NCBI GenBank assembly: GCA_021735655.1
Contig: JAIPGM010000011.1
Coordinates: 1 to 56,791 of the forward strand
DNA: 56,791 bases
Origin: Candidatus Omnitrophota bacterium
GTDB taxonomy: Bacteria > Omnitrophota > Gorgyraeia > Duberdicusellales > 4484-171
Direction of reading: 5' to 3'
The notes beneath the pieces are model-generated. The model did no database searches, was not told the origin of the DNA, and was given only the letters and a program-made list of their open reading frames with translations. Positions 137 to 1,656 of this stretch are shown piece after piece. Each line of letters begins with the position of its first letter. Position 1 is the first letter of the stretch. The translations under genes and the position numbers were made by a program.

Positions 137-595
137 ATGAAATCAAAAATTGCTATTGTCTTAGGAAGTAAAAGCGATATTGTTAAATTAAAAGACGGGT
201 TTGATTTATTTAAAGAGTTTAAGATTCCTTATACGGTGGAAGTTATCTCAGCTCATCGGAATCCTGAGAAATTACGTAAATACTGCCAGGGCTTAGAGAA
301 AAAAGGTACGGAAGTGGTTATTGCCTGTGCTGGCATGGCTGCAGCCTTGCCAGGCTTTATTGCTTCTTATGTAAATATTCCGGTTATCGGTGTTGCTTTA
401 AAAGGCGGGCTTCTTGATGGCCTGGATGCTCTTTTTTCAATGGTTAGCAGTCCCAAAGGCCTTGGTATGGCTTCAACTGGTGTAGGGGAAAGCGCTTTCA
501 TTAACGCTATAATTTTTTCTTTAGAAATACTCGCCCTCAAAGATAAAAATGCAGCAGCTACTCTTAAAAAGTTAAAAGCTAAATTTAAAAAGTGA
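137..595 (+). CDS. purE: N5-carboxyaminoimidazole ribonucleotide mutase (PurE)
   Basis: 152 aa; the stretch VISAHRNPEKL…ACAGMAAALPG matches PurE across its length. AGGAG Shine-Dalgarno 8 nt upstream of the ATG. Confidence 0.9.
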   Translation: MKSKIAIVLGSKSDIVKLKDGFDLFKEFKIPYTVEVISAHRNPEKLRKYCQGLEKKGTEVVIACAGMAAALPGFIASYVNIPVIGVALKGGLLDGLDALFSMVSSPKGLGMASTGVGESAFINAIIFSLEILALKDKNAAATLKKLKAKFKK

Positions 596-1656
596 ATAAG
601 TTATTCATCGATCCAAGCAATATTGACCAGTCTTTAGCTAAGCAGGCTGCGCTTAAGCTTTCGGAAGGAGGCATAGTGGCCTTACCTACCGAGACCGTAT
701 ACGGCTTAGCTGCTCGGGCTGACAATAAGGAGTCGGTCGATAAGCTTTATGCCTTAAAGGAAAGACCGCGTGATAAGCCATTTTCCTTTGCTTTGGGCAG
801 CGTTGAGGAGGTTTTTAAGAGTTATTTTAGTACCTTTGCACCTTTTGTTCATCGGTTGATTGAAAAGTTTTGGCCGGGTCCGCTTACACTTATTTATTAT
901 ACCAACGATGATAAAAAGGTCGGCGTCCGGGTCCCTCAGCATGAGACTATCGCTCAAATTTTACAGAATCTTGGCGTAGCGGTGTGTTTACCTTCAGCTA
1001 ATTTAAGTGGCCAGAAAGAATCAGTGACCGCCGAAGAGGTTGAGCGGGTTTTTGATTCTAAAATTGACTTAATCGTTGACAGCGGTCCTTGTCCTTTGGC
1101 TAAAGCTTCAACGATATTAGATCTCACTGAGAAACCTTTTAAGATCATACGTCAAGGTGCAGTTTCCGAAGAGGATATTGCTAAAGTATTTATCAAAAAG
1201 AGAGTGCTTTTTGTCTGCACCGGAAATAGTTGTCGTTCTCCGATGGCTCAATATTTGCTTGAGAAGTATTTGAGTGAAAGCAAGTTGTATTTTAAAGACA
1301 GATATGAGATAATTTCACGAGGTATATCTGCTTTTGAAGGTTCAAAGGCTTCCAAAGAAGTAGTTGAAATATTAAAAGATAAGGAAGATTTAGACTTGAG
1401 AGGTTTTTCAGCTAAAGCTCTAGATCGAGCAACGGTTCTTTCTTCAGATTTGATTTTTACTATGGAGGAGCGACAGTCTGAATATATTTTACGTTCGATG
1501 CCTACGGCTATTGGTCGAGTTTTCCATCTAAATAAATTTCTTCCGGCTAATCTAGAAAAGGATATACCTGATCCAATTGGTCAACCCAAGGCCGTCTATG
1601 AGAGGGTATATTTACTTATTAAAGAGGCAATTCTAGAGTTAAAGGATTGGGTTTAA
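592..1656 (+). CDS. tsaC: Fusion protein: L-threonylcarbamoyladenylate synthase (TsaC/YrdC domain) + low-molecular-weight protein (Tyr/Arg) phosphatase domain
   Basis: The N-terminal ~190 aa is a YrdC/Sua5 domain (ALPTETVYGLAARADN). The C-terminal ~150 aa carries the LMW-PTP P-loop VCTGNSCRSPMAQ (CX5R) and the DPIG general-acid motif. Both domains sit in one continuous 354-aa ORF. Confidence 0.85.
   Translation: MNKLFIDPSNIDQSLAKQAALKLSEGGIVALPTETVYGLAARADNKESVDKLYALKERPRDKPFSFALGSVEEVFKSYFSTFAPFVHRLIEKFWPGPLTLIYYTNDDKKVGVRVPQHETIAQILQNLGVAVCLPSANLSGQKESVTAEEVERVFDSKIDLIVDSGPCPLAKASTILDLTEKPFKIIRQGAVSEEDIAKVFIKKRVLFVCTGNSCRSPMAQYLLEKYLSESKLYFKDRYEIISRGISAFEGSKASKEVVEILKDKEDLDLRGFSAKALDRATVLSSDLIFTMEERQSEYILRSMPTAIGRVFHLNKFLPANLEKDIPDPIGQPKAVYERVYLLIKEAILELKDWV

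Follow-up and report, generated by a model that had tools for sequence, protein, structure and literature searches.

L-Threonylcarbamoyl-AMP (TC-AMP) synthesis is the first step of the universal tRNA modification t6A37 (N6-threonylcarbamoyladenosine at position 37), and TsaC must meet TsaD to pass on this unstable intermediate. In a 2023 survey of the enzymes of this step (PMC10321239), a proline immediately before the SAN motif marks Sua5 and a threonine or serine marks TsaC, and TsaC is proposed there to have arisen repeatedly, each time losing the SUA5 domain and then changing adaptively. A connection between this pathway and protein phosphorylation is reported from Bacillus subtilis, where TsaD is described as Arg-phosphorylated at R282; loss of ywlE destabilises TsaD via ClpCP, the R282K substitution reverses this destabilisation, and YwlE protects TsaD from ClpCP (PMC7546277). 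According to PMC7772506, a threonine at position 5 of the phosphatase P-loop contacts the guanidinium group in YwlE and in Drosophila DARP, phosphotyrosine (pTyr) enzymes have isoleucine at this position, and the T11I substitution moves the preference from phosphoarginine (pArg) to pTyr (citing Fuhrmann 2013).

Here we describe an open reading frame (ORF) that joins a TsaC/Sua5-type domain to a YwlE-like low-molecular-weight (LMW) phosphatase domain. It is found in a contig of a Candidatus Omnitrophota bacterium (JAIPGM010000011.1 of assembly GCA_021735655.1), the 56,791 nucleotides of which are called the window below. The ORF lies at 592..1656 on the forward strand, which also carries the domains, motifs and neighbouring genes described with it. 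It probably encodes a bifunctional TC-AMP synthase/YwlE-like phosphatase that was made by fusing neighbouring genes. The architecture, assembled from two well-known families, is real, conserved and uncharacterised, and its function is a prediction.

A conserved fusion gene

The fusion ORF has a GTG start and encodes 354 aa plus a stop codon. Pfam places PF01300 (Sua5_yciO_yrdC) at aa 23-189 (E=2.3e-48) and PF01451 (LMWPc) at aa 205-348 (E=3.2e-24), in agreement with the initial annotation of this DNA, which had read 592-1656 as one ORF fusing a TsaC/YrdC domain to an LMW phosphatase. The protein also scores 173.7 bits, with a cutoff of 123.2, against TIGR00057, the NCBIfam equivalog model for L-threonylcarbamoyladenylate synthase. 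Together with Foldseek matches, these models delimit an N-terminal Sua5/TsaC-type catalytic domain of the YrdC fold (aa 1-198, 592..1185) and a C-terminal LMW (class II Cys) phosphatase domain (aa 203-354, 1198..1653). The AlphaFold2 (AF2) model of the protein has a predicted local distance difference test score (pLDDT) of 97.3 and a predicted template modelling score (pTM) of 0.91, and every 10-residue block reaches a pLDDT of at least 93 except aa 71-80 (92). At the junction (1168..1218; AF2 secondary structure), the helix that closes the TsaC domain (aa 193-201) passes directly into strand beta-1 of the phosphatase (aa 203-209), and in most of the best 150 cluster representatives at 50% identity the two Pfam domain envelopes are separated by 0-3 aa. 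The two halves are therefore modelled as joined rigidly, without a flexible linker. No solved structure covering both halves was present among the sequence and Foldseek structure matches. We also considered a separate phosphatase product initiated at an internal GTG (V205) and set it aside, since inspection of the sequence by eye showed that the purine-rich stretch directly abuts this codon.

One explanation for such an ORF would be a sequencing or assembly artefact, in which a frameshift or lost stop codon had joined two genes in this metagenome-assembled genome (MAG). Beyond its a priori possibility in any metagenome assembly, nothing speaks for an artefact, and we consider its probability negligible. 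A protein identical to that of the window (P0001) is on record at NCBI for a MAG of Candidatus Omnitrophica. Both Pfam domains are present in all 120 of the best 90%-identity clusters (52-100% identity to the query), with a query coverage of at least 99% in all but one, and these clusters come from several public sources (NCBI, JGI, ENA and Logan). When 1.84 billion cluster representatives were searched exhaustively with HMMER, 680 had E<=1e-30; among the best 150 of these 680 50%-identity representatives, 149 contained both domains and one was a fragment, at 33-60% identity. The same continuous architecture, with aligned junction residues, is thus found in many assemblies from four source collections at 33-100% identity. 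The initial annotation had itself raised the frameshift possibility and proposed a survey of relatives; comparison between assemblies, rather than reads, excludes the artefact, and the survey finds the fusion down to 33% identity, mostly in Candidatus Omnitrophota.

Organism names, taken from the sources and known for part of the cluster members, show that fusion carriers are nearly always Candidatus Omnitrophota/Omnitrophica; a few fusion-bearing MAGs are labelled Planctomycetota/Planctomycetia and one Candidatus Aerophobetes. We conclude that the fusion is genuine, ancient and conserved, and that it is the standard form across Omnitrophota. Its earlier description as unusual holds in comparison with model organisms but not within Omnitrophota. 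In databases these proteins are numerous and are named 'threonylcarbamoyl-AMP synthase', a name that ignores the phosphatase half.

The two active sites

To describe conservation we use residue counts from an alignment of 124 diverse two-domain members, in which mean column identity is 36%. The TsaC motifs TETVYG, K56/R58, S135-A-N137, S173-T174 and R187 are all retained in this alignment. The KxR motif of the TC-AMP synthase active site (K56-E57-R58, 757..765) keeps its lysine in 117 and its arginine in 114 of the 124 fusions, and the SAN motif, which with the preceding signature residue forms P134-S135-A136-N137 (991..1002), keeps Ser in 123, Ala in 117 and Asn in 122. The best sequence and structure matches of aa 4-222 are to Sua5/TsaC2 (E=4.5e-33; Foldseek E ~1e-21). 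A YciO-like paralogue is unlikely, with YciO matching at 1.9e-13 compared with 4.5e-33 for Sua5/TsaC2 and with TIGR00057 above its cutoff.

The protein fits neither of the two described forms of the enzyme. With 67 bits against NF007919 (cutoff 175), a proline signature and two domains, it is not a single-domain TsaC. It is also not a two-domain Sua5, as the linker loop with its HY motif is absent and Pfam finds no PF03481 (Sua5_C) match in the window protein. The fusion family does not conserve KPSPT and GVE, which are interface motifs of Sua5; a canonical Sua5 in one of the compared loci (L003) has RPSPT, GVE and the linker motif GMKYKHY, the last of which is absent from the fusion. At the signature position the window protein carries the Sua5-type proline (LPSAN, P134), and the fusion family is mixed (P in 67, T in 44, S in 9 and A in 3 of the 124). 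We infer that the N-terminal half descends from the catalytic domain of Sua5 and, being without SUA5, stands part-way along the path proposed in PMC10321239; a mixed Pro/Thr/Ser signature is expected if SUA5 loss followed by adaptation is still in progress in the fusion family. This half, from which both the linker loop and the SUA5 domain are gone, would make TC-AMP from threonine, bicarbonate/CO2 and ATP.

The phosphatase domain stands in the same C-terminal place as SUA5 and gives a total length of about that of Sua5, both domains have an alpha/beta sandwich fold, the P-loop binds anions, and no function has been established for the SUA5 domain. These features would suit a protein in which the phosphatase fold has taken over a role of SUA5 in TC-AMP synthesis, such as closing the active site or holding pyrophosphate. 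We regard such a substitution as very improbable. Alignment of the fused LMWPc domain with the Sua5_C profile gave an hhalign probability of 0.13%, and only the N-terminal half superposes on Sua5 (TM-score 0.53, root-mean-square deviation 14-17 Å, a TM-score about that obtained with single-domain YciO); likewise, the Foldseek matches to Sua5, TsaC2 and YciO cover the N-terminal half only, and YrdC structures are matched as well. On these grounds LMWPc was rejected as a diverged or substitute SUA5. Moreover, the Sua5 linker motif, GMKYKHY in L003, is missing, no residue of the phosphatase catalytic set varies, the general acid Asp included, and three-domain proteins of Bacillota, described below, keep Sua5_C and add LMWPc, so that the two domains are not interchangeable.

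The C-terminal half has the C-X5-R-(S/T) P-loop, the DP acid loop and the LMW protein tyrosine phosphatase fold of class II Cys phosphatases. Its P-loop, CTGNSCRSP at aa 209-217 (nt 1216-1242), includes the nucleophile Cys, the phosphate-binding Arg and a Ser at position 5 in the segment C209-T-G-N-S213-C-R215-S216 (1216..1239). As the initial annotation had noticed, this loop is nearly that of YwlE, CTGNTCRSP standing at the equivalent place in Geobacillus YwlE (4pic) and in the T. tengcongensis enzyme (4egs). The D-loop general acid, D327-P328 (1570..1575), lies within DIPDPIG; the aligned segments are DIADPFG in Geobacillus YwlE and DVEDPYG in 4egs. C209, N212, C214, R215, S216, D327 and P328 are invariant in 124 of 124 members, and the Gly following the DP of the D-loop is kept in 114. 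Position 5 is T in 62, S in 55, I in 4, M in 2 and R in 1, so that 117 of 124 (94%) have Thr or Ser there. Because the catalytic residues are invariant throughout, a pseudo-phosphatase is argued against. The conservation patterns indicate that both active sites are under purifying selection, and both halves are very likely active. In the YwlE-type Cys phosphatase that we propose for this half, C209 would be the nucleophile, R215 would bind phosphate and D327 would act as general acid.

Within the LMW phosphatases, structural similarity is high in several directions. Target-normalised Foldseek TM-scores are 0.91 for 4egs, 0.82-0.90 for YwlE crystal structures and ~0.9 for Wzb; among the matches listed, they range from 0.82 to 0.93 for LMW phosphatase crystal structures, with 0.80 for 1zgg, a nuclear magnetic resonance model. 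The domain is 36-38% identical to YwlE-type enzymes and 31% identical to Wzb, a difference that is not decisive overall. DIPDPIG and the loop after beta-2, S-x-G-x-x-A-x-E-G-x-x-A-S, are nearer to YwlE/4egs than to Wzb. An arsenate reductase of the ArsC type was rejected: the domain has no Cys triad, C209 and C214 being its only cysteines, and it scores 31.3 bits against TIGR02691 (cutoff 174.3) and 35.6 bits against NF010053 (cutoff 215). We note that 4egs, the closest solved relative of aa 203-339, bears the title of an LMW protein tyrosine phosphatase while its chain is named 'Ribose 5-phosphate isomerase RpiB', which is probably a naming slip reflecting the conserved adjacency of LMWPc and rpiB genes.

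Probable origin from neighbouring genes and proposed function

The fusion gene is embedded in a compact gene cluster. Upstream lies its conserved neighbour, a purE-like gene of the 5-aminoimidazole ribonucleotide (AIR) carboxylase family (137..595; PF00731, E=2.5e-43), which falls just under the NCBIfam purE cutoff (TIGR01162, 138.8 bits compared with 149.6). Because the GTG start of the fusion ORF overlaps the TGA stop of this gene by 4 nt (GTGA, 592-595), translational coupling of the two is suggested. Downstream are rpiB (1673..2122; PF02502, E=2.2e-51; TIGR01120, 155 bits, above cutoff) and glyA, encoding serine hydroxymethyltransferase (2115..3362; PF00464, E=2.6e-163), whose first 8 nt lie within rpiB, followed by genes for dCMP deaminase, nrdR and a BFN-domain protein. 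The order purE-fusion-rpiB-glyA-dCMP deaminase-nrdR was confirmed with Pfam in two relative loci, L004, in which the fusion is 36% identical to the window protein, and L008. In L001 and L002 the neighbouring ORFs agree in size only, with a 152-aa ORF at the position of the purE-like gene. The rpiB gene also adjoins the fusion, or its separate genes, in L004, L006, L007, L008 and L009, and is the conserved downstream neighbour in Omnitrophota as well as Bacillota loci. Other neighbours are found at the Aerophobetes locus and at one Planctomycetota-labelled contig (L005). In this last MAG, a gene for a 604-aa Hanks-type protein kinase stands directly upstream of the fusion (L005 846-3720), and the P-loop of that fusion protein (P0258) is of the Ile type, CTGNICRS, which is phosphotyrosine-like; this is a single case.

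The same two domains have been joined in Bacillota. Eight of the best 150 representatives are proteins of ~470-610 aa with Sua5_yciO_yrdC, Sua5_C and LMWPc domains. Among the Bacillota that have this three-domain form are the cultured Sedimentibacter sp. zth1 and S. hydroxybenzoicus DSM 7310; other Sedimentibacter species have a plain Sua5. A comparison of two complete genomes shows how the joined and separate states correspond. Sedimentibacter sp. MB31-C6 has sua5 (352 aa), 8 bp, a gene for a 160-aa LMWPc protein and then rpiB, a glycosyltransferase family 4 (GT4) gene and an epimerase gene, and Sedimentibacter sp. zth1 has a single 502-aa ORF (P0302) with these same three genes after it. The zth1 protein is 70% identical to the separate MB31-C6 product in its TsaC part and 46% in its phosphatase part, and each of its domains is 31% identical to the matching domain of the window protein. 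Because the zth1 domains are closer to the MB31-C6 genes than to the domains of the window protein, these comparisons indicate that the sua5-ywlE fusion arose at least twice.

The initial annotation had interpreted the locus as the ywlC-ywlE-rpiB-glyA order of Bacillus with its first two genes made one. That sua5-ywlE-rpiB is shared with Bacillota, and that rpiB and glyA lie downstream here, stands; the strict adjacency assumed for Bacillus does not, as ywlD is upstream of ywlE in B. subtilis 168 and, to judge from the gene names, ywlC and ywlE are near one another but not strictly adjacent. Strictly adjacent sua5 and LMWPc genes are those of Sedimentibacter sp. MB31-C6. The best reading is that the window protein derives from the joining of two neighbours of an old sua5(ywlC)-ywlE-rpiB cluster.

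Such an origin does not by itself imply a common task. Loss of a stop codon between co-transcribed genes could leave two enzymes that work as if separate, linked by equal expression only. We consider this neutral fusion a serious alternative, somewhat improbable yet one that must be kept well in view. The Sedimentibacter pair, with genes 8 bp apart, shows how easily the fusion can originate, close congeners live with the fused or the separate state, and TsaC of Mycoplasma genitalium has been joined to another neighbour, HemK (PMC4615747). Against neutrality, the fusion has been retained in a very deep lineage (to 33% identity), with a tight linker-free connection and a fixed domain packing that is confidently predicted (pTM 0.91). 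The fusion also recurs independently, sua5-ywlE adjacency is conserved across phyla, and data from B. subtilis connect YwlE with TsaD (PMC7546277).

The conserved adjacency to rpiB in both phyla, and the lack of a nearby kinase gene among the scanned ORFs of the window, could instead point to a phosphatase for a small molecule or nucleic acid, its substrate being an rpiB-linked sugar phosphate, an acyl or carbamoyl phosphate, or an RNA end. HypF provides a precedent, in that a YrdC-like domain is fed there by a fused phospho-hydrolase domain. We nevertheless think a substrate of this kind improbable: the closest characterised relatives are protein phosphatases, the arsenate reductase branch is excluded (two cysteines; 31-36 bits against cutoffs of 174-215), and to our knowledge t6A chemistry has no phosphorylated precursor.

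Returning to a protein phosphatase of the YwlE type, we asked what its substrate and purpose might be. A hydroxyl residue at P-loop position 5 would favour pArg over pTyr, as Thr does in YwlE and DARP, and a preference for N-phosphoryl (pArg-type) substrates is accordingly a possibility that we hold a little short of probable. Tethering to TsaC could deliver the phosphatase to the t6A machinery because TsaC meets TsaD, and because TsaD of B. subtilis is under the control of Arg phosphorylation and YwlE; a phosphatase carried on TsaC would reach TsaD at every TC-AMP hand-over. This analogy makes delivery a tentative suggestion, rather unlikely as it stands. Still less likely, in our estimation, is the further step that the phosphatase serves specifically to regulate the t6A pathway throughout Omnitrophota, removing a phosphoryl mark at TsaD/TsaBDE; that mark could be pArg-type, as at TsaD R282, or, where the variant is of the rare Ile type, pTyr. 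If true, this would wire an essential tRNA modification directly to protein phosphorylation and would place N-phosphoryl signalling and an arginine kinase in a phylum beyond the Gram-positives.

Several observations weigh against the overall interpretation. The phosphatase half obtains the same 53.6 bits with Geobacillus YwlE and with the pTyr phosphatase Wzb. The specificity residue is Ser213 here, and Thr versus Ile is the only pair tested experimentally (PMC7772506). Some members of the fusion family sit elsewhere, without rpiB or glyA as neighbours. Among the 54 Pfam-scanned ORFs of the 57-kb window (out of 63 ORFs of at least 110 aa), there is no kinase, McsB/ClpC or TsaB/D/E; these 54 are housekeeping genes, such as those for CCA-adding enzymes, recG, fab and leu genes, truA/truB, the dcw cluster, nadA and mnmA. 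We know of no McsB partner for Omnitrophota. Finally, fusion of co-transcribed neighbours can be neutral, and fusion alone is no proof of mechanistic coupling. Nonetheless, the functional relationship between the two activities that the initial annotation had inferred is strengthened, as a prediction, by a lineage-wide fusion with both active sites kept, by the independent fusion in Bacillota and by the TsaD/YwlE data (PMC7546277).

Other window features and comparison with known systems

Three other regions of the window deserve mention. At 42949-46882 is a dcw cluster (mraZ, rsmH, a penicillin-binding protein gene, mraY, murB, ddl and a weak ftsQ) followed by two Pfam-less ORFs that occupy the usual place of ftsA and ftsZ; the first (43789-44934, 381 aa) has only a faint colinear match to T. 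maritima FtsA (E=0.02) and the second (44960-46882, 640 aa) has no match at all. Two genes with a PolyA_pol-head nucleotidyltransferase domain, at 4757-6199 and 23552-24829, of which one also has an HD domain and the other the head only, could represent a split CC-adding/A-adding pair or, alternatively, a CCA enzyme together with a poly(A) polymerase. At 6203-7141, Macro and NUDIX domains are present in a single ORF, and because the listed recG start (7035) overlaps this ORF by ~107 nt, the true start of recG is probably further downstream.

Comparison of the fusion with described enzymes places its first half beside T. maritima TsaC2 (9d3h), P. abyssi Sua5 (6f87) and S. tokodaii Sua5 (2eqa/3aje), with which it has the KxR motif, the SAN motif and the Pro before SAN in common. 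The fusion differs from these proteins in having neither the linker loop with the HY motif nor Sua5_C, and a phosphatase domain follows instead. Its second half shares with YwlE (B. subtilis 4kk3, G. stearothermophilus 4pic) and 4egs the fold, the C-T-G-N-[T/S]-C-R-S-P loop and D-x-x-D-P-x-G, and the YwlE gene, like the phosphatase part of the fusion, is placed beside sua5 and rpiB. In contrast to YwlE and 4egs, the fusion has a covalently attached TsaC, Ser rather than Thr at position 5, and Ile rather than Phe or Tyr after DP. The three-domain proteins of Bacillota, such as P0302 of zth1, consist like the window protein of the same two enzymes in the same order with rpiB next, and their P-loop is CTGNTCRS. 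They differ in that the SUA5 domain and linker are kept, and in that their fusion is recent and patchy within one genus.

Fusions of a YrdC-fold, adenylate-forming domain to a partner or neighbour are known from HypF (acylphosphatase-Zn finger-YrdC-Kae1), TobZ, Pandoravirus TsaN and the M. genitalium TsaC/HemK protein. HypF, like the fusion described here, pairs a YrdC-like domain with a phospho-hydrolase domain. None of these proteins has an LMW phosphatase domain, however, and in HypF, TobZ and TsaN the partner is a Kae1/TsaD-type transferase that uses the adenylate. The window protein is not of the HypF/TobZ type, as it contains no Kae1-type domain and scores 25.4 bits against TIGR00143 (hypF; cutoff 466).

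We found no description of a TsaC-phosphatase fusion in the searchable full-text literature or in the t6A reviews and surveys consulted. Earlier surveys of the first t6A enzyme recognise just two forms, TsaC and Sua5, and the fusion is a third widespread form, which a classification based on size would score as Sua5. Repeated, independent gene fusion is evidence for a functional connection of YwlE-type phosphatases with t6A synthesis, in agreement with the genetic data from B. subtilis, and the protein offers a simple recombinant system for asking whether phosphoarginine-type phosphatases work outside Gram-positives.

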